From a virus (Duplodnaviria > Caudoviricetes): a stretch of 64,000 nucleotides of DNA. This document shows positions 1-18,904 of the stretch, in pieces (within the stretch, counting starts at the first letter, position 1; the number at the start of each line of letters is the position of its first letter). Below the pieces are notes generated by a model, which ran no database searches, had not been told where the DNA came from, and was given only the letters and a program-made list of their open reading frames with translations. The position numbers and the translations under genes are program-made. The stretch spans positions 1-64,000 of IMG/VR virus record IMGVR_UViG_3300033069_000690, one strand, 5' to 3'.

Positions 1-81
1 GATGTTATCACTAATTATCATCCTTTAGACAATTTAGGTGATAAGTTACATTTGGTAATAGTACCATTTGTGAACTACTAA
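1..81 (+). CDS. 3' end of an upstream gene (partial, DVITNYHPLD...VPFVNY*)
   Basis: Open frame from position 1 to TAA at 79-81, followed by an A/C-rich spacer and the next ATG at 93. Confidence 0.45.
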   Translation, partial: DVITNYHPLDNLGDKLHLVIVPFVNY

Positions 82-92
82 TACCTAACACA

Positions 93-329
93 ATGAGCTC
101 ATTAAGCCCAATCACAAAGTGCTTACTATACCCAATAGTAATAGCATTCTTATTAGTATTCTACGCATTAGTAGATTACTCATTAACCTTGTTCTTTGCA
201 TGGTTATTTGAAGCAACACTAATTAGTACAGCAACCTTCCCACTGATGGTTGTATTATACGTATGTAGTGCTGTTGGTGCATTTGCTTCAATACTTACAT
301 CATGTGAGTACATAGAAAAAGAATTTTAA
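93..329 (+). CDS. small membrane protein (2 hydrophobic segments)
   Basis: 78-aa ORF with an A-rich start context and hydrophobic stretches. Confidence 0.65.
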   Translation: MSSLSPITKCLLYPIVIAFLLVFYALVDYSLTLFFAWLFEATLISTATFPLMVVLYVCSAVGAFASILTSCEYIEKEF

Positions 330-332
330 GCA

Positions 333-1019
333 ATCCTAGTTAATTCACCGATAAAATCAGCTTAGACTACTGATTTCCTATTCTAGGTAAGGTTCTTATT
401 GCTCACGCCAGTGATTTGCGTGTAATAAATTAGGATAATCTTATGAAAACCAATAACTTAACACCTTGAACTATGCTAGAGGTGGTGCGTAAAGCATTGA
501 ACAGCAAACTTGTAAGCCTTGAAGCCAGAGATGGTGGAGCTGTTAAGCAAGTAAATTCAATGCATAGTTGTGGTACAAAGCAGTCTTCGAGCAACCTAGA
601 AATAGGCCAATACCTTGATGTAAAGGCGACTGAAATAACTGAGTATCACAGCTATTGCATTAACATTATGAAAATCAATACTTAATTAAATGAGGGTGGA
701 GTAAATGTAGTTACTGCTCCAGACCCTTCCTACGCGAGAATGCAGAAATCTGGTTGATACTTACTTAAACCAATTTCCACCTATCAGTACTCAAAAAGAG
801 AGATTGTTAAACTGATAATTAAAAAGGTGTAAGACAGTCCCATACAAAGTCCTGGGCTAAATGAATCCAGGCATACTAAACAATCAAAAGAAGCTTTGCA
901 CCGCTATTACTTGTAAGTAATACCAGGTGTAGAAAAAGAGAGATGCGCATTCTACTTGAGCAGGTAGAACTCAATGATGGTAGTCAAACCATTGAAATTA
1001 GGTAAAACTATCCCTAATT
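333..1019 (+). ncRNA. candidate large multi-domain structured non-coding RNA
   Basis: About 690 nt without a credible ORF. Nested helices 333-341/428-436, 461-467/824-830, 480-485/777-782 and 559-572/647-661, many local hairpins, and GNRA loops (CCTA-GAAA-TAGG 595-606, CCA-GAGA-TGG). Confidence 0.6.
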
Positions 1020-1044
1020 ACGTATAACTAAAATAACAAACATC

Positions 1045-1293
1045 ATGGCAATAAAATGCATAGTAATAGGTGAACAACCACCAGATACAAGAAAACGAAT
1101 CACATTCGAACACGTTCTTTTAGTTGATCTCGTTGTAACAAAGACTAATATTAGACCTGAGCATTCTAAGTACATAGAATTAATCTGTAAAAACTATATA
1201 CCTGGTAAAGACTTAATGTTTGCTTATAATAACCCAAGTAACAGAAGTCAAGGATCATTAATAATTGGTCAATGGAATGATGGTGTAGCATAA
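1045..1293 (+). CDS. hypothetical protein
   Basis: 82-aa ORF preceded by the A-rich leader aaaataacaaacatc. Confidence 0.65.
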   Translation: MAIKCIVIGEQPPDTRKRITFEHVLLVDLVVTKTNIRPEHSKYIELICKNYIPGKDLMFAYNNPSNRSQGSLIIGQWNDGVA

Positions 1294-1303
1294 AATAACT
1301 AAT

Positions 1304-1326
1304 CACATCTCGTAAGATCTGTGGTT
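1304..1326 (+). repeat. 23-bp direct repeat, copy 1 (CACATCTCGTAAGATCTGTGGTT), hairpin with GTAA loop
   Basis: Exact second copy at 1744-1766. Confidence 0.9.
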
Positions 1327-1360
1327 GGGGCATTTATTACCATCTAATACTTACCACATC

Positions 1361-1639
1361 ATGACAACACCGGAAATAATACAGAGACTATCTGATCTCA
1401 AGCCACTTGTTGGTAAAACAGACAAGGTAGCTATTGATGAGGCTATTGCTTTATTATCTGCAGCACAATTACTAGAAAGTAGTGCAAATGCTCTTGACAT
1501 GTTAAAAGGTCTTATAGATACTAATGATAGAATGATTGTAAAAGTTAGCAAAGATCGATTAATGGCAACTGAACCGCATATGAAATCTTTTCATGAAGGA
1601 GCTGCTACAATTTTACACGCTAGAGGAATAACATATTAA
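1361..1639 (+). CDS. hypothetical protein (start moved from TTG 1325 to ATG 1361, MTTPEIIQRL...)
   Basis: The TTG start overlaps the repeat hairpin; ATG 1361 is in frame. Confidence 0.65.
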   Translation: MTTPEIIQRLSDLKPLVGKTDKVAIDEAIALLSAAQLLESSANALDMLKGLIDTNDRMIVKVSKDRLMATEPHMKSFHEGAATILHARGITY

Positions 1640-1743
1640 AAGGTATAAAACCCTAATTAAAACGAAACAGTATAACCACTAAATAATTACACAACGGGCA
1701 AAAGCTCTCACAGCAATTTATCCGTCAGTTAAATGTACTCAGC

Positions 1744-1766
1744 CACATCTCGTAAGATCTGTGGTT
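1744..1766 (+). repeat. 23-bp direct repeat, copy 2
   Basis: Identical to 1304-1326. Confidence 0.9.
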
Positions 1767-1789
1767 AGTTAATAATTCATACCAATTCA

Positions 1790-2230
1790 AAGGTACATGA
1801 CAATTGTCAGTTGGTAGAGAATTGTAAAGCATACTTGAAAACACAAGACGATTCTAGTGATTAGTTTTTGTACTTGTAATATAATCTAAGTAAAGTATGT
1901 GGTGGCAGCATTTGAAAAGCGGGTGTGTAAGAAGAAATTCTGATAACGATTAGTAAAATGCCTCAACAATAGTAATATTGTTGTAGTAGTTGTTTGAAGA
2001 TTGCCAAGAATCGAGGCTATATAACAACATTGTGCAACTGGGGTGATTACCAGTAACATCATGAAGATGAAATACAAGTACCTAATGGTTTAAAGAGGGG
2101 ACTTATGTTGTGATATGATAATAAATACAAAAACACCAATGGGAAACCTGCTAGGACATGGTGGTATGAAACAGAAAACGTAGACTGTGATTGTATGTTT
2201 ATTGTCTAAGTAACAAAGTAATTAAGGCTG
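1790..2230 (+). ncRNA. candidate structured non-coding RNA region
   Basis: No credible + ORF. Stems GTACA/TGTAC (1793-1797/1869-1873), ACAATT/AATTGT, CAACAATA-GTAA-TATTGTTG (1964-1983), GTTGTT/AACAAC and ACTGG/CCAGT. Confidence 0.4.
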
Positions 2231-2272
2231 AACACGCTTGTATTTATTTAATTAACTAAAAACTAACACATT

Positions 2273-2476
2273 ATGATTTACTTATACATATTAGGATTTA
2301 TAGTATCTTATGTCTTAATAAAAAGATTAAGAGGTAAAAAGGAAACTAACAATACTTGGGGAGATGTATTTCTTACAGTATTTTGTTCTTTATTGAGTTG
2401 GGCAACAGTAATACTAATTATCCTTATTTACCTAATAGTGGTTGTAAAGTTACCTAAACCTCCTAAATGGTTATAA
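2273..2476 (+). CDS. small membrane protein
   Basis: 67 aa, two hydrophobic segments, A-rich start context. Confidence 0.7.
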   Translation: MIYLYILGFIVSYVLIKRLRGKKETNNTWGDVFLTVFCSLLSWATVILIILIYLIVVVKLPKPPKWL

Positions 2477-2532
2477 AATAATATACCATATTTGGTGTGA
2501 AAGATAATAAAAATCACTTGCTTGAAGATATT

Positions 2533-2564
2533 TTTGGTAATTTAAAGTATTTATTGTATATTTG
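2533..2564 (+). promoter_or_regulatory. Bacteroidetes-type housekeeping promoter (-33 TTTG / -7 TAnnTTTG)
   Basis: TTTG at 2533-2536, a 20-nt spacer and TATATTTG at 2557-2564 match the known Bacteroides/Flavobacterium consensus. Confidence 0.7.
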
Positions 2565-2568
2565 TATT

Positions 2569-2673
2569 ATGAATGTAGTATACATATATATTTTAAAAGA
2601 CCAAGATTCTAATATAAAACACCAATGGGAAAGCGAAAGTTCGATTCTTTCCTTAGTTACTAACAACAAATAA
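2569..2673 (+). pseudogene. truncated GIY-YIG homing-endonuclease-like N-terminus fused to a tRNA 3' remnant
   Basis: MNVVYIYILKDQDSNIK resembles GIY-YIG N-termini; the frame then runs into a tRNA T-arm (GAAAG-TTCGATT-CTTTC, 2635-2651) and stops at 34 aa. Confidence 0.45.
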
Positions 2674-2679
2674 AAATAT

Positions 2680-2958
2680 ATGAAACCAATTTTAGATCAA
2701 ACACGACAGATTCATTATGTAGATAGTAGTGATATGATTGATTTTATTGCAACTAACTCAAAGATGGAGTGGAATAATGTATGTGATTTTGTTAAAGAAA
2801 ATAACATTTGTAATGGAGAATATGGCCCATCGTTTTGGGAAAAAGAAGATTTAATTAAAAAATCTCACGAATTCAATGAAGAACAAGTTTATTGGGTTAG
2901 TGCGTTTTTTGAAGCACATCCTTGGATTGAAAGAATGATGATTGTATTTGATGATTAA
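2680..2958 (+). CDS. hypothetical protein
   Basis: 92-aa ORF, A-rich start context. Confidence 0.75.
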   Translation: MKPILDQTRQIHYVDSSDMIDFIATNSKMEWNNVCDFVKENNICNGEYGPSFWEKEDLIKKSHEFNEEQVYWVSAFFEAHPWIERMMIVFDD

Positions 2959-3003
2959 AAAAAATCACTATTGGATTGATCAAAACTTATAACAACCTAA
3001 CAC

Positions 3004-3267
3004 ATGAAAAAGAATACTCTCTTAACTATCTATATGATAGTATTAGTGCTCCTGAAGCTCGGAGCATGGATAGGCGTGCCATTAGCCTCTAAGATGGATG
3101 ACGACATAGTTATTGTATTAATATTCATGTCCTCATTATCCTTATTTATAATTTATAACCTTTCTGAAGGCATTAAATTTAACCGTTTAATTGAGCTATA
3201 TGAGCACGATTATGACGAGCATTATATGGTTGCTCATAATAGGAACCATAGCTCAAATCCAAGCTAA
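3004..3267 (+). CDS. small membrane protein
   Basis: 87 aa, two hydrophobic helices. Confidence 0.65.
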   Translation: MKKNTLLTIYMIVLVLLKLGAWIGVPLASKMDDDIVIVLIFMSSLSLFIIYNLSEGIKFNRLIELYEHDYDEHYMVAHNRNHSSNPS

Positions 3268-3349
3268 ACAAGATGATACAAGGATTAATTCTAGGATTAG
3301 CAGTCATAATAGCAGCGATCCTCAACGAAGACGATAATATTAACCTATC

Positions 3350-3658
3350 ATGACAGCACTCGAACAATACATAGAGGATATGCGTAAAAACATGTCCTCT
3401 AATCAATTAGAGATGAAGGAGTATTTCATCCAACTAGCTAAAGCACTTGATGCTGATTTAAAAGGAAAAAAAGAACCTGATAACAGTTATATACAAGGTG
3501 TATTACCTGATACAGCATTAAAAACTGTGTGTGAACTATTAGAGTTAAACCACGAAATAATTTATGCTGATATCCATGGTGCATTAAGAATTCAAAAAAT
3601 ATCTGAACCTCCCTCATCAAAAGGACATTATAAATATCCTTCTCTTGGGGTAAAATAA
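3350..3658 (+). CDS. hypothetical protein
   Basis: 102-aa ORF. Confidence 0.7.
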   Translation: MTALEQYIEDMRKNMSSNQLEMKEYFIQLAKALDADLKGKKEPDNSYIQGVLPDTALKTVCELLELNHEIIYADIHGALRIQKISEPPSSKGHYKYPSLGVK

Positions 3659-3682
3659 AAAATAATCTAACACAAATAACTC

Positions 3683-4237
3683 ATGAAGAAATTCATCACA
3701 TTACTCTCATTATTCCTTCTAATAGGAATTACATCTCAAGCTGATAGTATAACTACTAAAGCTAAGGAGATGGCTCAAACTGCTGTTAATACAGCTGATA
3801 GTGCTATTACTGCTGTTGATACTAGCAGTACGTTTAAAACGTTCTACAATGACCTAAAATCAGGTGTTGGTGCGCTATCATCATCACTTAAAGTTGGTGC
3901 AACTGAGGTCTTTAAAATCCTTATTAAGCAACAATTAGTACAATCTATAAGCTGGTTACTAATTATAATTGTATTATTAGGTCTAGGATTTTATGCGTTA
4001 TCTTGCGGTAAAAAAGCTGTTGATAAAGCAAATAGTAAGCGAACACAAAATGAAAATTATGGTAGAAACTATTCAATAGGAGATTCAGAATTCTTAGAGT
4101 ATATGATAGCTTCAATATTCCTAATAGGAGGAGGTCTTGGTATGCTTTGTGTATTATGTACTGATATTGTAACAGGATTCGTTAATCCAGAGTATGGAGC
4201 CATTATGGACGTAATGAATATGATTAAGAAATTTTAG
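3683..4237 (+). CDS. exported/membrane protein (signal peptide plus 2 TM segments)
   Basis: MKKFITLLSLFLLIGITSQA-D signal-peptide pattern and two further hydrophobic segments. Confidence 0.8.
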   Translation: MKKFITLLSLFLLIGITSQADSITTKAKEMAQTAVNTADSAITAVDTSSTFKTFYNDLKSGVGALSSSLKVGATEVFKILIKQQLVQSISWLLIIIVLLGLGFYALSCGKKAVDKANSKRTQNENYGRNYSIGDSEFLEYMIASIFLIGGGLGMLCVLCTDIVTGFVNPEYGAIMDVMNMIKKF

Positions 4238-4325
4238 TAGTAACACCATTGCCAATTTGGCTCTACTACTTAAATAAAGGTGTACTGCATAGCAGTTCTC
4301 ACAGTAGCTCCTTTAAGGCTACTTT
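4236..4325 (+). other. compact intergenic RNA structure (three hairpins, possible pseudoknot, T-run)
   Basis: AGTAGTA/TACTACT stem around a GCCA-ATT-TGGC hairpin; ACACC (4243-4247) is complementary to GGTGT (4279-4283); AGTAGC/GCTACT hairpin followed by TTT. Confidence 0.4.
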
Positions 4326-4350
4326 TATATTCACCTAACACTAAAAAAAC

Positions 4351-4995
4351 ATGCTTAAACAAATTAAAAAGTTACCAAAGCTAAATAAGCGAGAGGAACA
4401 AATTGTCCTATACTTAAGAAAATTTTACAGTTCTATAATCACATTGTTTCGTTATGACAGAACTAGTAACGAAGAATGTAAGGAAGTAGTAAATAATGTC
4501 GAAGTATTTGCAGCCATCCCTATGTACGAAAGTATTGTTCTTGTATTGTTTTCTCTTAGAAAAGCTCTAGGAGAAGAACGTATAAGATTTATTGACGTAG
4601 GAGCTGGTAAGGGTAACATATTAATGCTTGCTCGAACTATATGGACTTGTGCTACTAAGAATACAAGTTGGGATGATTTTGTTGGTATTGAATTTAATAA
4701 AGCTTATTGTAGAATATTATCACAATTAGATGTTATAATATTGTATAATGATGCTTTTGAAATACGTAATAAGCAACTATATAATGGGGATTCTTCCATA
4801 CGTAGAGTATTCCATATCTATCAAATAGTAAAAGATCCAGACAAACTAAAAGAGCTATATCAACTCTACATTAAATTAATGAAGTCTGGTGATATACTAA
4901 TTGTTAGTGGATTAGCTTATGAAAGTTGGTTTAAGGAGTTAAATCTAATAAGCCCAGGAAAACAAATGGGTGTAATGGTATACATAAAACCATGA
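4351..4995 (+). CDS. class I SAM-dependent methyltransferase
   Basis: Motif I FIDVGAGKGN, then acidic motif II GIEFN and YNDAF. Confidence 0.8.
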   Translation: MLKQIKKLPKLNKREEQIVLYLRKFYSSIITLFRYDRTSNEECKEVVNNVEVFAAIPMYESIVLVLFSLRKALGEERIRFIDVGAGKGNILMLARTIWTCATKNTSWDDFVGIEFNKAYCRILSQLDVIILYNDAFEIRNKQLYNGDSSIRRVFHIYQIVKDPDKLKELYQLYIKLMKSGDILIVSGLAYESWFKELNLISPGKQMGVMVYIKP

Positions 4996-5312
4996 CAGCT
5001 CCACACTTCTCACACGATCAGTGGGTGTTATTAGGCTTTATTATAGTAGTATTCATACTATTAGTAATAATGTCAGTAGTTGTTAATGAAGTAATATTAG
5101 CTCATGAAGAGTATGATCTAATTAAACTACCTAATGGTGACTACCAATACACACACCCAACTAAAGGTGTAATCATCTGCAAAAGCAATGATTTCCCAGC
5201 AATGTGTATTATCCATAGAGACTTAGCTTCTAGACCTGATGCAAAAATCAAGGATGAGGTTAGAGTCTTATTCTACAAAGAATTTAACGAATTGGTCCAC
5301 ATGGATCTATAA
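4992..5312 (+). CDS. membrane-anchored hypothetical protein
   Basis: ATGA overlap with the upstream gene; N-terminal TM helix. Confidence 0.7.
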   Translation: MTAPHFSHDQWVLLGFIIVVFILLVIMSVVVNEVILAHEEYDLIKLPNGDYQYTHPTKGVIICKSNDFPAMCIIHRDLASRPDAKIKDEVRVLFYKEFNELVHMDL

Positions 5313-5318
5313 AAACCA

Positions 5319-5367
5319 GTGTTAGGTTAGGGTTGGTGGGAGCGATCTCACCTTCCCTTCTTAATAC
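5319..5367 (+). other. long intergenic hairpin with GCGA tetraloop (processing site or terminator)
   Basis: GTGTTAGG/CTTAATAC, AGGG/CCCT and GGTGGGA-GCGA-TCTCACC. Confidence 0.55.
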
Positions 5368-5382
5368 ATAATCCATACTCAA

Positions 5383-5589
5383 ATGGGTATTAACACAATC
5401 TTAGTATTTCTACTCATTATTTCCTTCGCAATAGGAGTAAATGGGGTAGCCCATCTAATGTATTGGTCATGGTTATCAAAAAAACCAGTAGAAACAGTTA
5501 ACTTCCACTGTAATAAAGCGAAGAATCTCATAATAACAGCATTCGTGCTGTGCTCAGTATTCTTACTGATCCTAATAATCTTACCTTAA
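5383..5589 (+). CDS. small membrane protein
   Basis: 68 aa, two hydrophobic segments. Confidence 0.65.
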   Translation: MGINTILVFLLIISFAIGVNGVAHLMYWSWLSKKPVETVNFHCNKAKNLIITAFVLCSVFLLILIILP

Positions 5590-5601
5590 TAAGGCTTAAA
5601 T

Positions 5602-5681
5602 TGTGACATAGCATAAGGTTAACACAATCCTTGAAATTGTAATGATGGGCTAATATGGAGGTTCAAATCCTGCTGTCGCCA
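5602..5681 (+). tRNA. degenerate tRNA-like gene (anticodon loop CCTTGAA, i.e. UUG/Gln register with C33)
   Basis: Acceptor TGTGACA/TGTCGCC with a 1-72 mismatch, perfect ACAAT/ATTGT anticodon stem, T-loop GTTCAAATC; D-arm is incomplete and the variable region is long. Confidence 0.5.
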
Positions 5682-5689
5682 CTAAAGTA

Positions 5690-6129
5690 GCGTAAGTTTA
5701 GCATTATAATTTCTAAAATCCTAGTGGTAACATTAGGCGTGTTGTTACCCTTGAGAAAGGAAAAGTATTAAATAGATATAAACCCTGTTGGTTAATCTTA
5801 TCTACAACACGAATGAGTTCTCAGCAAAGTAGTTAATGACCATGAAACGTAACTAAATCAACTAAAAGTTCCCTCGGTAGTACATGGATCAGGAACTTAA
5901 TTAACTACGTGACCCTACTCTTATTATAGACTGCTAAAAGTCCTGCAATAATAAGACAAGAGGGTGCTAAATCGTATATTTACATTTACATCGGAGAACC
6001 CTCTACGTGAAGAACGTGGTTGATAATTACCGGCAGGGTAATCAATAAGTATCCGCTAATAGTAGTAAGGGGTTGGGGTGAGGAATGGATTTTAAATCCT
6101 ATCTCGTTAAAACTCTGACCCCATATTAC
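5690..6129 (+). ncRNA. candidate large structured ncRNA directly 3' of the tRNA-like gene
   Basis: Stems CGTGTTGT/ACAACACG, GTAGTTAAT/ATTAACTAC, AAGTTCC/GGAACTT, TCTTATTAT/ATAATAAGA and TGGGGT/ACCCCA; GNRA hairpins CCTAGTG-GTAA-CATTAGG and CCTT-GAGA-AAGG; no credible ORF. Confidence 0.6.
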
Positions 6130-6145
6130 ACAATTCAAATCTAAC

Positions 6146-6304
6146 ATGAACAAAATAATTAACTTCGAAAACAAATCAGAGATGCATGTAAAGAATGCAT
6201 TTCTAAACTTAAAGGAACGTTACAGGGATGTACGATTTCCTAAAGTACACATGAGGGCTAGCCTCTGTACAGGATTCTTTGTTGTTGGTAAACAAAAACT
6301 ATAA
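6146..6304 (+). CDS. small hypothetical protein (52 aa, MNKIINFENK...; not in the ORF track)
   Basis: ATG 6146 in an A-rich context; TAA 6302-6304 lies 2 nt before the next ATG. Confidence 0.6.
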   Translation: MNKIINFENKSEMHVKNAFLNLKERYRDVRFPKVHMRASLCTGFFVVGKQKL

Positions 6305-6306
6305 CC

Positions 6307-6711
6307 ATGGAAAAGAACATCATTGGCGAGGTTAAAATACCTCTATTAACTAGGGAACAGTTTACTAAAGAAAAATGGGAAACAGGTGATTACATTTTAT
6401 TAGACTATTATAACAGAGAAGTAACTATTGTTAAAGAAGATTACACACATAGTTATCATAGAATTGATGGTTATTATATATGTCCTGTCCATGGTACTGT
6501 AATGGGAGTTGTACTTTATGTTCTTACTAAAAATGATAGTCAAAGACCGTATCTAAAAAAGAAAAAGGAAATTAGCCCTCGTACATTAGTTAGCTCGTAT
6601 AAGTATATACATTTTATACGTAGATATGGAGATGATGAAGTAAATTATTCCGCTGTACTATCGAATCAAGAAACTCTAGCTGGATCTACGTTCAGTCTAG
6701 AAATAAAGTAG
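6307..6711 (+). CDS. hypothetical protein
   Basis: 134-aa ORF. Confidence 0.7.
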   Translation: MEKNIIGEVKIPLLTREQFTKEKWETGDYILLDYYNREVTIVKEDYTHSYHRIDGYYICPVHGTVMGVVLYVLTKNDSQRPYLKKKKEISPRTLVSSYKYIHFIRRYGDDEVNYSAVLSNQETLAGSTFSLEIK

Positions 6712-6772
6712 TTTCTGTATAAGGAACGGATTCTACTTCATTTATATTAGTAGTAATATTAGTGCTCTGAAG

Positions 6773-6801
6773 GGCTAAGCTAACCCTTATAATGCTTAGC
6801 C
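6773..6801 (+). other. hairpin immediately upstream of the tmRNA (GGCTAAGC/GCTTAGCC)
   Basis: Perfect 8-bp stem; TATAAT lies in the loop. Confidence 0.45.
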
Positions 6802-6815
6802 TATAGGAGTTTAAT

Positions 6816-7139
6816 GGGGCTAAATTGGAATCGACTGGAGTTGATGTAGTAATCTCGCATGTAGAGCAAGTTTGGAGCCTCTTAAAACCTCTATTCATCT
6901 TCGAAATGACAATGATCTTTCAACAACAACGTTTGCTGATGTAATGGCTTCTATTGAAGCTAACACAGCTGAACCAGTTCTTATTGCTGCCTAATAAGTG
7001 TCTGTGTGGACATTAAACACACTGGTGGAGGTCTGGAAAGACCCTAATAGTACGAGTGAAATGGTGGTAATCCACTAAACATGTAATCCGAGGTTACAAC
7101 ACGATTAGCAGCACGTGGGTTCGAAACCCACTAGCTCCA
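6816..7139 (+). ncRNA. ssrA: tmRNA (transfer-messenger RNA); tag (A)DNDLSTTTFADVMASIEANTAEPVLIAA**
   Basis: 5' GGGGCTA...GGAATCGAC; 3' T-arm GTGGG-TTCGAAA-CCCAC and acceptor TAGCTCC-A with the G3:U70 alanine identity pair; internal frame 6908-6991 ends LIAA TAA TAA; CCA is not fully encoded. Confidence 0.93.
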
Positions 7140-7157
7140 CAATTAAAACATTTAACA

Positions 7158-7535
7158 ATGGTAGAAATTAAAGAATTACTAGGTAAAGTTATTACTAAAA
7201 TTGATCAAAGTAATAACGAATTAACCTTTCTTATTGAAGATGGTACTAAGTACAAAATGTACCATGAACAAGATTGTTGCGAAGATGTAACAATCGAAGA
7301 TATAAATGGTGACTTAGAAGATCTAATAGGATCTCCAATATTACAAGCTGAAGAAGTTTCAGACTACAAACCTATCCTAGAGGAAGATGTTAAGAAAACA
7401 AATGAAATCTTAGAATGGGGTTCTTGTACTTGGACTTTTTATAAGTTAGCTACAATTAAAGGTTATGTAACCATTCGTTGGTTTGGGGAATCAAATGGCT
7501 ATTATTCTGAATCAGTAACTTTTGCAAAAGTATAA
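7158..7535 (+). CDS. conserved phage hypothetical protein (YHEQDCCEDV motif)
   Basis: 125-aa ORF with a motif common in large phages. Confidence 0.8.
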   Translation: MVEIKELLGKVITKIDQSNNELTFLIEDGTKYKMYHEQDCCEDVTIEDINGDLEDLIGSPILQAEEVSDYKPILEEDVKKTNEILEWGSCTWTFYKLATIKGYVTIRWFGESNGYYSESVTFAKV

Positions 7536-7538
7536 CAC

Positions 7539-7739
7539 ATGAGAATATTTGAAAAAGTACAACTAATAGATGGTGGTCCTAATGATAGAGGTAAAGTAAT
7601 AGGTTATGTGAGTACTAAACACATGACTGCTGAGCCTAAATCAAATGATGGTTTTATAGTCTTCAGAGAAATCTCCATCAGAGAGTATAACAAACGTAAA
7701 AACGAAGCTCTTAGAGCTCTAGACCTATTCATAATATGA
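7539..7739 (+). CDS. hypothetical protein
   Basis: 66 aa, tightly packed in the operon. Confidence 0.65.
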   Translation: MRIFEKVQLIDGGPNDRGKVIGYVSTKHMTAEPKSNDGFIVFREISIREYNKRKNEALRALDLFII

Positions 7740-8302
7740 AACCATTAGAATTAACAGAAGAGCATAGATCTAAGCTATTAGAGATGTGCAAGGAATTGTT
7801 TCCTAATTATGATTTTATGATTAGAGATTTTGTAGAAAAGAATCCTAGTATCAGTCTTGGAAAGAAATCTAAAAAACTCTATGAATGTCATATCCATTGG
7901 TACGAGTTCTGTATTGAACACTTATCCAAAAAAATATATACAATTGATAACCAAGTAATGTCTGGTTATGAGTATTTTGTAAATAATTTTAGGTATAAAA
8001 AAGAACACCCAGTAGATTATCTATATGCAGACTACAAAAAGCGAGTTCAAATTTCTCCTATCATGAAGACTCTATTAGAGATCATTAAGGATAAGTTTGG
8101 AGTTAGTGTTAATATCACTCCTCAATCTACTATCCAAGATGATTGCGGATTAGATTCTCTGGATCAAGTTGAGCTTATTATGGAACTCGAAGTTAGGTAT
8201 AAAATTTCTATACCTGATGAAGATGTAAATATAAAGTTCAATCACCTATCTACATTACAAGATGTAGAAAACTATTTAATTTCAAGAAATGTTACAAAAT
8301 AA
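7736..8302 (+). CDS. two-domain protein: unknown N-terminal domain plus C-terminal acyl carrier protein (ACP) domain
   Basis: Residues 110-188 are ACP-sized and acidic, with GLDSLDQVELIMELE...ISIPDED; phosphopantetheine site Ser141 (8156-8158). Confidence 0.85.
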   Translation: MKPLELTEEHRSKLLEMCKELFPNYDFMIRDFVEKNPSISLGKKSKKLYECHIHWYEFCIEHLSKKIYTIDNQVMSGYEYFVNNFRYKKEHPVDYLYADYKKRVQISPIMKTLLEIIKDKFGVSVNITPQSTIQDDCGLDSLDQVELIMELEVRYKISIPDEDVNIKFNHLSTLQDVENYLISRNVTK

Positions 8303-8699
8303 CATCACTCTACTTGAGTTAATTGCCATTTTATTTATTCATTGGGTAGCTGATTTTGTACTTCAAACAGATTATCAAGCTAAGAATAAGAGTAAGAGCT
8401 TAAAAGCTTTATTAAGCCATACCACAGTATATAGCTTATGTACTGGTCTTTATTACTTTGCATTTTTTCCTACATCATTTCATTTACCTAATATCACTCA
8501 ATGTGATCCGGGATATCTAAATATTATAATGTTTACTCTTATAACATTTGGATGTCACACTATTACTGATTACCTAACTAGTAGGTTAAATACCTATCTA
8601 TGGGATAAGGGAGATGTACATAACTTCTTTGTATCTGTAGGATTTGATCAGTACTTACATTACCTTCAATTGCTTATCACTTACTCGTTATTAAGATGA
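8289..8699 (+). CDS. DUF3307-family membrane protein
   Basis: HWVADFVLQT, HTTVY, HTITD and DQYLH motifs with TM segments. Confidence 0.8.
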   Translation: MLQNNITLLELIAILFIHWVADFVLQTDYQAKNKSKSLKALLSHTTVYSLCTGLYYFAFFPTSFHLPNITQCDPGYLNIIMFTLITFGCHTITDYLTSRLNTYLWDKGDVHNFFVSVGFDQYLHYLQLLITYSLLR

Positions 8700-9640
8700 A
8701 AACATTAAATTTAGTAGATCCTGATAATTCTAATGTAAGGTATATTATCCAAAATATGCCTGATGGTCAACATAATGTTGTTATTAAAGAAGAAGACTAC
8801 TATTCTCTTGACTTATTAGAAGGGCAGTATATTCAAATCAAATCCCGTCTAAACAACTGGATAGATCTTGAAATTATCATCTGTGCTGTAGCCTCATTAC
8901 GTGAGCTAGGTGTAGAAGAAATTCATTTATACGTTCCTTACATATTAGGAGCTCGTAGTGACCGTAAATTCGAAGAGGGTGGTAATAACTACCTACGCGA
9001 TGTTATTTGTCCTATAATTAACTCTATGGGCTTTAAAACAGTAACTTGTATTGACCCACATAGTGATTGTTTAGAAATGGGTATTAGAGGATTTAGAAAG
9101 CAATCTAATTTAGCATTAATTAAATTTGCTTTAAATCGTTTGTACCCTAAAATTATTCCTAAACAAGATACTAAACCAACAGATTTTATATTAGTATCAC
9201 CAGATGCAGGTGCAAGTAAGAAAATCTACAAACTAGCCGAACAAATAGGTTATAAAGGAGATATTATTACTTGTAGTAAAGAAAGAGATGCTGAAGGTAA
9301 GCTGACTAAAACTGTATTTCCTTTTGAAACTCATAAATACAATGGTGAAGACTTCATTATCATTGATGATATTTGTGATGGGGGAGCCACTTTCATTAAT
9401 ATCGCACGAAGAATTAAAGATTGTTTTGCTATTCGAGGAGCCAATCAAAACATTAAACCAGGTAAAATCTACCTCATAGTAACTCATAGTGTATTCTCTA
9501 AAGGATTTAATGAGTTAAGTAAGTACTTTGATGGTATTTACTGTACTAATAGTTATTCAGAAACTAGACCAGCTAATATACTGGATAGTACTGAAACTAT
9601 CACCGCTTTGAAGAAAGTAAAACAACTAAATGTCTTTTAG
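8696..9640 (+). CDS. prs: ribose-phosphate pyrophosphokinase-like protein (probable Adps of an NARP1-type pathway)
   Basis: PYILGARSDR, DPHSD, VSPDAGA and IIIDDICDGGATF (PRT motif). Confidence 0.9.
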   Translation: MKTLNLVDPDNSNVRYIIQNMPDGQHNVVIKEEDYYSLDLLEGQYIQIKSRLNNWIDLEIIICAVASLRELGVEEIHLYVPYILGARSDRKFEEGGNNYLRDVICPIINSMGFKTVTCIDPHSDCLEMGIRGFRKQSNLALIKFALNRLYPKIIPKQDTKPTDFILVSPDAGASKKIYKLAEQIGYKGDIITCSKERDAEGKLTKTVFPFETHKYNGEDFIIIDDICDGGATFINIARRIKDCFAIRGANQNIKPGKIYLIVTHSVFSKGFNELSKYFDGIYCTNSYSETRPANILDSTETITALKKVKQLNVF

Positions 9641-13815: not shown

Positions 13816-13889
13816 GCCTCTAGTAGCTTAAGTGGTAGAGCGTCTGTCCTGGTGACGGCGAGGTGGGGGTTCGAATCCCCTCTAGAGGC
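13816..13889 (+). tRNA. atypical tRNA: His-type 8-bp acceptor (G-1:C73) with non-canonical loop CCTGGTG (UGG register)
   Basis: GCCTCTAG/CTAGAGGC, D-arm GCTT-AAGTGGTA-GAGC, T-arm GGGGG-TTCGAAT-CCCCT, canonical spacing; C33 and U37 are abnormal. Confidence 0.8.
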
Positions 13890-13925
13890 ACTAAGATTAG
13901 TGTTATTAATTTAAACCAAGTAGTA

Positions 13926-17008: not shown

Positions 17009-18904
17009 TTGAAAAACGTATTCGTAGTAGGACATAACCCCTTTTTTAATGATTCTTTTTGGAAACCTGCTACAGTAGAACAAGTATTAGAATACTTTAA
17101 AAACAAAGATTCAATTGCGGTGGATACCGAAACAAGCGGAAGAGATCCCCACGTTAAGAAGTTACTGACTTTACAACTTGGGGATGCTTCTGCACAATTT
17201 GTAATAGATCTTAGACATATAGATGTTAAGCTGTTTAAACCTCTATTAGAGGAAAAACTGTTACTTCTACATAACTCTAAGTTTGACTACAAATTCTTAA
17301 AGGCTGCTGGTATTTATATCGAGAAGATATATGATACTATGTTAGCTGAGTGCGTTATCTATAACGGTTATTTTAAATTTGGATATGGATTAGCAGCATT
17401 AGTAAAGAGATATTGTAATGAAGAAATGTCTAAGGAGACTCGTGGAGACTTCTTTAAGCTTTCCTCTAACTATCTAACTGATGAGCAGATAAGATATGCT
17501 GCAAAAGATATCCAACATTTACATGATATTAAAGCACAACAAGAAGCTAATTTAAAATTATACGATCTTGAGTATTGTGCTAACCTAGAATTTGAAGCTG
17601 TAAAGGCTTTAGCTGATATTGAGTGGAATGGTATGTACTTAGACAAAGAAGAGTGGTCTAAAATAGCTGAGAAATATACCGAACTATGCACGAACTTAGA
17701 GTTCGAACTTGACTCAATACTAATAGGAGACAAAGGTAAAAAATTTAAAGCCAATGGGGTTCTAAGCCTCTTTGACGAACAGGTAAGACAGTTACATTAT
17801 AACTACTCATCTCCAACACAAGTACTCTCAATTCTACACAAATTAGGGTTTAAAGTTGATGATACGAACGATCGTACTCTCACTAAATTACTAGGTCAAC
17901 ATCCTTTTATAGATAAATTACAAGAGTATAGAGGAGCTATAACAATAGTTAATCGCTATGGCTATGGTTTCCTTGACTACATTAATAAACATACTGGTAG
18001 GGTTCATACGGACTTCTGGCAGGTACTTAATACAGGACGTGTGTCATCAGGTAATGATGATATGAATGCTCCTAACTTACAAAACATTCCAGCTGATAAC
18101 AAGTTCAGGAATTGCTTCAAAGCAAGACCAGGATTTCTGTGGGTATCCATAGATTATTCCTCACAAGAGCTTAGATTGATGGCTGATGGTAGTAAGGAAG
18201 AAGGCTTTATAGATGTCTTAAACAGAGGAGAAGATTTGCATTGCTATGCAGGTTCTATGATGTTTAAAAGACCTATCACTAAAGCTGATAAAGACCTTAG
18301 AAATAAGGCGAAAACTATTAACTTTGGAAAACCATATGGGATGGGGCCTCCAAAGTTAGCTGATACCTTATCTATACCTATTGAAGAAGCTGAAGAGCTT
18401 TTTAGGGAGTATGGTAAAGCTTTCCCCAAATTAAATAAGTGGCTGGATGAGCAAGCAGCATTTGCTAAAAAGAATGCTTATTCAGTCACTTTCGCACCGT
18501 GTAAAAGACGTAGATGGTATCCTGATATGAAGGAAGCTAGAGAACTACGGGCTTTAGGACGAGACAAACTCTCTAAAGATGACTGGAGGCATATATTACA
18601 AATAGAAGGACAAACAGAAAGGAATGGTATGAACATGCCTATTCAAGGAAGTGGTGCTGATATTTGTAAAGAAGCCTTAGTCGGGGTTAGAAACCTCATT
18701 AGAGATTACAATACAAAATACAATGAAACAGTGGCTTATTTAATATGTACAGTCCATGATGCTATTGATGTAGAAGTTAGAGAAGATCTAGCTGACCAAT
18801 TCTCTGAGGAGATGGCTAAGATTATGATTGAGGCTGGTAATAAATACGTTAGTACAGTAGAAATGGGTGTAGATGTTACAATAACCCCTGTATGGGTCAA
18901 ATAA
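17009..18904 (+). CDS. polA: family A DNA polymerase with 3'-5' exonuclease
   Basis: ExoI DTETSG, ExoII HNSKFD, ExoIII YAAKD; motif A DYSSQELR, motif B KTINFGKPYG, motif C VHDAI. Confidence 0.95.
   Translation: MKNVFVVGHNPFFNDSFWKPATVEQVLEYFKNKDSIAVDTETSGRDPHVKKLLTLQLGDASAQFVIDLRHIDVKLFKPLLEEKLLLLHNSKFDYKFLKAAGIYIEKIYDTMLAECVIYNGYFKFGYGLAALVKRYCNEEMSKETRGDFFKLSSNYLTDEQIRYAAKDIQHLHDIKAQQEANLKLYDLEYCANLEFEAVKALADIEWNGMYLDKEEWSKIAEKYTELCTNLEFELDSILIGDKGKKFKANGVLSLFDEQVRQLHYNYSSPTQVLSILHKLGFKVDDTNDRTLTKLLGQHPFIDKLQEYRGAITIVNRYGYGFLDYINKHTGRVHTDFWQVLNTGRVSSGNDDMNAPNLQNIPADNKFRNCFKARPGFLWVSIDYSSQELRLMADGSKEEGFIDVLNRGEDLHCYAGSMMFKRPITKADKDLRNKAKTINFGKPYGMGPPKLADTLSIPIEEAEELFREYGKAFPKLNKWLDEQAAFAKKNAYSVTFAPCKRRRWYPDMKEARELRALGRDKLSKDDWRHILQIEGQTERNGMNMPIQGSGADICKEALVGVRNLIRDYNTKYNETVAYLICTVHDAIDVEVREDLADQFSEEMAKIMIEAGNKYVSTVEMGVDVTITPVWVK

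Follow-up and report, generated by a model that had tools for sequence, protein, structure and literature searches.

A modular array of local hairpins in the early region of a distant crAss-like phage, read as a candidate family of structured RNA

The phage, its early region and the relatives of tract 1

The window, that is, the whole stretch of DNA analyzed here, comprises the first 64 kb of a 90.5-kb IMG/VR record with a CheckV completeness of 59%. It has a G+C content of ~32%, and its genes run rightward up to ~40 kb, where giant leftward ORFs take over. One of the latter, of 4868 aa, has a DFDVD motif at residue 3890, the mark of the crAss-type virion RNA polymerase (Drobysheva et al., bioRxiv 10.1101/2020.03.07.982082). 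The PolA protein (window 17009-18904) has its nearest relative in the Leptolyngbya phage Lbo-JY46 (32% identity), followed by gut crAss-like phages, all at ~30%. Such low identity to both suggests a distant crAss-like phage of uncertain host, and since Lbo-JY46, the nearest cultured relative by PolA, is a cyanophage, a Bacteroidetes host is not certain.

The early region of the window carries at least three gene-free tracts: tract 1 (333-1019), with which this study is mainly concerned, tract 2 (1640-2272) and tract 3 (5590-6145). The sole gathering-threshold Rfam matches in the window are a tmRNA (6816-7142) and one tRNA, the latter being the single tRNA call of ARAGORN and Rfam, at 13816-13891. 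A tRNA-like identity was considered for tract 1 and rejected, as neither ARAGORN nor Rfam calls a tRNA there. Proteins encoded next to tract 1 gave no Pfam match and one uninformative PHROG match (membrane protein). At many gene starts (93, 2273, 3004, 3683, 4351, 38760) the heptamer CTAACAC is found at most 15 nt before the ATG, and a Shine-Dalgarno sequence is absent.

The place of tract 1 in the early region can be read from L015, an identical 10.6-kb contig that reaches 8.2 kb further left (L015 1-8186) than window position 1; the IMG/VR record thus begins in the middle of the early region. On L015, leftward genes end at 7304 and rightward genes begin at 7386, and from this divergent gene-block boundary it follows that tract 1 begins ~1.1 kb into the rightward early block.

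Relatives of tract 1 were reached via its flanking proteins, namely the 82-aa gene product and the cREC_REC protein (whose gene lies upstream of the tract 1 homologue in some relatives), and via the members of their 90% clusters. Logan and ENA contigs supplied six further lineages (L009/L010, L011/L012, L039-L043, L044/L045, L047 and L014), which are 84-100% identical to the window in the shared parts or core, and a contig, L013, on which only the last hairpin, H11, is present. As the independent lineages number only about six and the core is this similar among them, the covariation described below rests on few events. The search for more distant homologues was negative: blastn in “distant” mode with 300-1050 gave no match in the phage database, pattern scans of IMG/VR for H6, H11 and H3 (three gap ranges) returned the identical contig only, and pattern scans of JGI metagenomes and GTDB genomes for tract 1 found none. 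Distant relatives of the 82-aa gene (L004-L008, ~49% amino acid identity) and cREC_REC relatives (L017-L030) have dense coding DNA without the tract. The covariance models R1 and R2 had no match elsewhere in this genome, and none in phi14:2, Lbo-JY46 or a 230-kb relative.

Coding potential and local hairpins of tract 1

An earlier sequence-only reading of the window had described tract 1 as gene-free, and this holds under table 11 as well as after readthrough of the stop codons: reading TAG as Q, TGA as W or TAA as Q opens no frame across the tract. The only ORF of at least 60 aa, 473-685 (70 aa), is not conserved. It is shortened to 44 aa in the nearest relative, L009, and the L009 version is its only relative among 5.8 billion proteins. 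No ORF is common to all seven lineages of tract 1.

The same reading had pointed out a 21-nt motif that occurs twice, and there are indeed only two copies in the 64 kb (441-461 and 666-685), where 0.11 would be expected. Copy 1 (441-461, + strand) is part of the D2 domain and opens a mini-ORF of 8 codons (443-469). Copy 2 (taken with its surroundings, 662-689, + strand) presents a gene-start-like context, resembling those of the early genes of this phage, and then a mini-ORF of 5 codons (668-685). It lies directly 3' of hairpin H3, whose 3' arm ends 7 nt before the gene-start-like ATG. Copy 2 is kept in L009, L011 and L039 and is missing in L047; in L044 and L014 its start is kept, but other short ORFs follow. 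The start and the first 3-4 codons after H3 are retained in five of six lineages, while the remainder of the mini-ORF differs. Taken together, the mini-ORFs vary in sequence and in length (5, 6, 8 and 13 codons). Copy 2 could be a translation start of the leader type that is coupled to H3, or else a relic of cassette recombination.

Taken as a whole, tract 1 folds more stably than its shuffles, as had been anticipated, with z = -3.67 on the + strand (only 20 shuffles) and -2.14 on the - strand. The signal is unevenly distributed, which speaks against the claim that the tract folds almost end to end. With 200 shuffles for each domain on the + strand, z is -2.0 for 333-436, 0.0 for 437-555, where the anticipated excess of folding energy is missing, -4.6 for 556-664, -1.5 for 688-836, -2.3 for 837-940 and -2.2 for 936-1030. 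In every domain, z is better on the + strand than on the - strand.

The helices and motif copies that had been quoted from the sequence all lie exactly at their quoted positions; what does not stand is the architecture that was built from them. The four words of the two supposed nested long-range helices also form two local hairpins, 462-466/480-484 and 778-782/825-829. The second of these is kept in four lineages that do not have 461-485, and an adjacent pair covaries, which leaves the long-range pairing, conceivable only in the window and L009, without comparative support. A proposed contact between the loops 365-368 and 982-985 amounts to a 4-nt complementarity at chance level, and 333-436, from which one partner would come, is absent from most lineages. 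Instead of one RNA of ~690 nt, the comparison suggests modular local hairpins, with a core of ~470 nt (556-1025) and a lineage-specific 5' third.

The conserved core, ~556-1025, is made up of local hairpins H3 to H11 in fixed order. Its structure was taken from the MFE fold of the window itself and laid on a structure-blind MAFFT alignment of ~686-1030 from seven lineages. For the region 689-1030, 98.3% of 412 cells pair and 9 pairs are changed on both sides, a count that none of 500 shuffles reaches, so that the covariation among homologues predicted earlier is present. In a control with the partners slid by 1-3 columns, 0-1 both-side-changed pairs and 29-45% pairing were left. An alignment fitted to model R1 (689-836) has 8 pairs changed on both sides (0/500 shuffles reach this count), and for 928-1030 alone the observed number of such changes is reached by 78 of 500 shuffles.

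The earlier claim of selection on a + strand RNA is upheld by the compensatory changes, the changes compatible with G.U pairing and the invariant loops. In 689-1030, four pairs are G.U in every lineage, and a change on one side of a pair mostly leaves a G.U pair. Since these pairs and changes would be A.C mismatches on the - strand, they point to an RNA from the + strand. An automatic count over all MFE pairs gave 19 G.U versus 10 A.C changes for the + strand and 13 versus 20 for the - strand, but this count is noisy, as variable regions misalign, and the strand argument is based on the curated helices.

All domains and hairpins of tract 1 are described here for the + strand. At the 5' end, the accessory domain D1 (333-436) is closed by a 9-bp helix (333-341/428-436) and has z = -2.0 on the + strand and -1.8 on the - strand. 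It is found only in the window and in L009, nearly identical in both, and so offers no variation in which covariation could be seen; elsewhere unrelated sequence takes its place. D2 (437-555), restricted to the same two lineages, has a local hairpin (462-484) in the MFE fold, and the rest of it has no structural support.

The core begins with H3 (556-664), a long hairpin whose basal stem of ~12-18 bp has one bulged U and whose top is hypervariable. Basal stem and bulged U are kept in all lineages, and in L044 an inserted A pairs with the bulged base. The top has been replaced three times and is cut to a 6-nt loop in L047; three alternative versions of H3 fold with z of -4.3, -3.4 and -4.2. In the five distinct rows, 95.5% of cells pair and 2 pairs are changed on both sides, which 88 of 500 shuffles reach, so that the pair statistics are no more than suggestive. 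H4 (692-728) has a two-part stem and an invariant 11-nt loop. With both-side changes in 6 of 10 pairs of the model-fitted alignment and in 4 of 9 pairs of the structure-blind one, it is, judging by the aligned lineages, the clearest helix of the set. H5 (745-777) consists of a 10-bp stem and an invariant 12-nt loop, with one both-side-changed pair and 98.3% of cells pairing. H6 (778-830) combines the local hairpin 778-782/825-829 with an inner stem; one of its pairs occurs as three pair types, and its invariant interior holds a purine-rich word (793-804). Stem variation in H4, H5 and H6 thus contrasts with invariant loops in the first two and an invariant interior in the third. In H7 (849-872), 2 pairs are changed on both sides and 100% of cells pair. 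H8 (895-933) is variable, with an outer helix of 4-8 bp and an inner A/U-rich hairpin. The version in the window has z = -3.4, other versions retain the inner hairpin with z near 0, and the sequence is not alignable between lineages, so H8 is weakly supported.

Immediately downstream, at 933-944, lies a 12-nt exact copy of the purine-rich word. Both copies are in tract 1, there is none elsewhere in the window, and the core of the word is retained in all lineages. The 3' domain (950-1019) is composed of H9 (950-969), H10 (976-993) and H11 (996-1019), and is found in every lineage (on the L013 contig as H11 alone). H9 has one pair changed on both sides, whereas H10 and H11 never vary and hence give no information on covariation. 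The helix that would close the H9-H11 junction is weak, and broken in two lineages. The sequence 936-1025 is 93-100% identical to the window, compared to 80-90% for the adjacent 82-aa gene. A heptamer that is invariant in all rows (1018-1024) marks the 3' boundary of the module.

Modularity and comparison with known systems

The segment 333-555 occurs only in the window and in L009, almost identical; 351-550 is identical between the two, and they have diverged on either side of it. In L011 and L039 an unrelated module of ~210 nt stands in its place, and in L044 a short one. In L014, 76 nt with two small hairpins of their own stand in for 674-882. Between H3 and H4 of L047 lies ~200 nt of unrelated sequence, which ends, a few bases upstream of the H4 homologue, in a perfect intrinsic terminator (L047 225-257: an 8-bp G+C-rich stem, a GAAA loop and a T run). 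Because of this terminator, the core may be more than one RNA. From the comparison of lineages, the H3 top, like 333-555, is an accessory that can be exchanged.

The neighbours of the module change as well. What follows 3' of the heptamer is, depending on the lineage, the 82-aa gene, a 290-nt insert, a 148-aa gene, an 89-aa gene or, directly, tract 2, and the upstream context varies too. The 290-nt insert is non-coding and sits right after the H11 homologue of L011 (1305-1615), with a heptamer of the 1018-1024 type on both flanks. The 148-aa gene, with a weak DUF6847 match, follows right after the H11 homologue of L013 (40-750), and in L044/L045 tract 2 lies directly 3' of tract 1 with no gene between. 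Since neighbours and modules change in this way, the module does not serve any single gene as its dedicated leader, and its parts may be spread over more than one RNA. Overall, the lineages show tract 1 to be non-coding, modular and independent of neighbouring genes at the sequence level. Further downstream, an exact 23-nt direct repeat that can form a hairpin (window 1304-1326 and 1744-1766) flanks the gene 1361-1639. L009, L010 and L014 have a single repeat copy and lack the gene, indicating precise insertion or deletion of a cassette.

The sequence-only reading had suggested that tract 1 is a GOLLD- or ROOL-like RNA or else a new class. The first part is not borne out, since tract 1 has no match in Rfam 15, which was searched for GOLLD (RF01998), ROOL (RF03087), ribozymes, group I/II introns, RNase P, 6S and riboswitches; with the cutoff relaxed to E 10, the segment 1-2600 yielded just two chance matches, both outside tract 1, and no match for tract 2. 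The second part, a family outside Rfam, stands. Tract 1 is like GOLLD and ROOL in being large, multi-hairpin and phage-borne, in a genome with tRNA and tmRNA genes. It is unlike them in that its local hairpins follow one another in a line, with modules that can be exchanged, and do not build one closed multi-domain fold.

The promoter-early stem-loop cassettes of T4-type phages are mobile regulatory cassettes, repeated units of ~50-70 bp with promoter and terminator. Tract 1 has in common with them that hairpin-bearing intergenic DNA lies at the borders of small early genes and coincides with indel breakpoints, but it is present in one copy, as a 470-nt array whose stems covary and whose loops are invariant. 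In the T7 early region, RNase III processing hairpins are found, one per gene junction. Long irregular hairpins between the early genes of a polycistronic transcript are a shared feature, and H3 resembles a T7 hairpin; here, however, nine hairpins stand in a row with no genes between.

Another comparison is with phi14:2. Close to where its rightward early genes begin, this phage has two long intergenic regions, the g004-g005 and g005-g006 junctions, and the RNAs to which they give rise are above most genes in abundance, appear early and persist (Drobysheva et al., bioRxiv 10.1101/2020.03.07.982082). We map these lncRNA regions to NC_021806 2904-4602. The virion RNA polymerase of phi14:2 accepts denatured DNA as a template, and no motif is known for its early promoters (Drobysheva et al., bioRxiv 10.1101/2020.03.07.982082). 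Tract 1 resembles the phi14:2 regions as a long gene-free tract a few kb into the rightward early block, and both phages have a virion RNA polymerase, the tract on the gene strand and several such tracts per genome. In sequence, tract 1 and phi14:2 have no detectable similarity (nhmmer and blastn, 300-1050 versus phi14:2 1-9000), and a further difference is that the phi14:2 RNAs are known to be expressed. Besides the phi14:2 preprint, we found no work on non-coding RNAs of crAss-like phages.

The sister tracts extend this comparison. Tract 3 (5590-6145, match ~5728-5948) is homologous, with conserved blocks, to NC_021806 3121-3315 (nhmmer E 5e-11). The match falls inside the g004-g005 junction of phi14:2, the source of an abundant early lncRNA. 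Tract 2 (1640-2272) matches gene-free DNA of Lbo-JY46 (PP438436 8588-9537; 97% identity over ~120 nt), and is 100% identical to L009 over ~1900-2100.

Interpretation and alternatives

We consider it highly probable, from the pairing patterns across lineages, that tract 1 contains a conserved structured RNA element on the + strand. By analogy, it is best read as a new, narrowly distributed RNA family of the same kind as the phi14:2 lncRNAs. We propose the following model. The region 556-1025 would form a chain of nine local hairpins (H3-H11) joined by A-rich single-stranded linkers. The module would be co-transcribed with the early genes and would accumulate as one or more stable structured RNAs, as the phi14:2 lncRNAs do. 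By means of the invariant loops and the two copies of the purine-rich word it would then act in trans, most likely as a scaffold or decoy to which a protein binds. For the proposal as a whole, an autonomous + strand RNA that is transcribed, stable and trans-acting via protein binding, the chances seem to us somewhat below even. Counting against it are the missing similarity of tract 1 to phi14:2, the failure to recognize a promoter or terminator at the module ends, the terminator between H3 and H4 in L047, the small number of lineages, the lack of variation in H10 and H11, the weak statistics of H3 taken alone, and the mini-ORF with its gene-start-like context within the core.

If the model applies, the division into fixed and swappable parts might have a meaning of its own: a fixed platform (H3 base, H4-H7, H9-H11) could bind a factor of the host or the phage while the swappable parts serve as specificity cassettes, with the H3 top and the 5' modules acting, for example, as decoys or antisense sequences tuned to the defence or RNA machinery of host strains. 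This is speculative, and we think it unlikely. A search for antisense targets of tract 1 within the phage genome gave chance-level matches only.

Few known viruses are as abundant as the crAss-like phages, and phi14:2 is the one model system among them with transcriptome data, in which early non-coding RNAs outnumber most mRNAs in a role that is still unexplained. Tract 1 would be a second, unrelated RNA family of this kind, and it comes with a comparative structure map of fixed hairpins, invariant loops and exchangeable parts. With at least three such tracts in a single phage, and a direct link from one of them to a phi14:2 RNA, the question of RNA function could become more approachable, for example through shared protein partners, narrow as the tract 1 family is.

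The alternative that survives best is that the hairpins are cis-acting parts of an early polycistronic mRNA, namely processing sites (H3 being of RNase III type), 3' stabilizers or insulators between adjacent gene cassettes, with the mini-ORF start beside H3 as a translational control point. Tract 1 lies between small early genes of the same strand, other hairpins mark nearby cassette borders (the 23-nt repeat), and the spacing of H3 to the gene-start-like ATG fits such a control point. Moreover, no promoter or terminator of its own was found for the module. There is no terminator-like site on the + strand of 1-2600, sigma-70-like sites in 1-2600 occur at shuffle level, and nothing recognizable is seen at the module ends, although this test is weakened by the fact that the promoter motif of the virion polymerase is not known. 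On the other hand, nine ordered hairpins over 470 nt with invariant loops exceed what processing or stabilization needs, and the genes or tracts that follow the module are of at least four unrelated kinds. A stem longer than ~12 bp is needed for a classical RNase III site, and H3 of L047, at only ~12 bp, is too short for one. We regard a cis-acting role as possible, but doubtful.

It is quite unlikely, in our view, that tract 1 is mosaic debris, that is, decayed cassettes or recombination junctions kept for phage recombination, with hairpins that are incidental or old terminators. The strong mosaicism with breakpoints at motif edges would fit this idea, as would motif copies that look like gene starts, the repeated heptamer around the L011 insertion and the identity of 351-550 between the window and L009 amid diverged flanks. 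Debris would not, however, be expected to have both-side-changed pairs in a number that no shuffle reaches, invariant loops, a 3' domain that is better conserved than the adjacent coding gene, or an H3 base that is kept beneath four different tops.

Two further explanations have very little in their favour. The element could act as DNA, either as a replication origin or as hairpin promoters for the virion RNA polymerase like those of coliphage N4, which are single-strand hairpins. The phage does encode a giant virion RNA polymerase (DFDVD), tract 1 is near the start of the early block, and the phi14:2 enzyme, with its denatured template and early promoters that lack a known motif, would leave room for such an element. 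The invariant G.U pairs and G.U-compatible changes fit only the + (non-template) strand, however, and would be A.C mismatches on the template; stems of 6-18 bp with loops of 6-12 nt are unlike N4 promoter hairpins; and no iterons were found. It is just as improbable that tract 1 encodes small proteins or peptides from ORF 473-685 or the mini-ORFs 443-469 and 668-685. The ATG starts do have a context typical of this phage's early genes and the first codons after H3 are kept in most lineages, but the ORF is truncated in L009 and absent elsewhere, and mini-ORFs that differ in length and sequence would yield at most leader peptides and cannot account for 556-1025.

A Bacteroidetes-type -7 box (TAnnTTTG), an element of the phi14:2 middle promoters (Drobysheva et al., bioRxiv 10.1101/2020.03.07.982082), was found only at 47-54 and 2529-2536. 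The box at 47-54 is the only one upstream of tract 1 and precedes ORF 93-329; in L009 and L044, the segment that carries it sits upstream of inserted genes.
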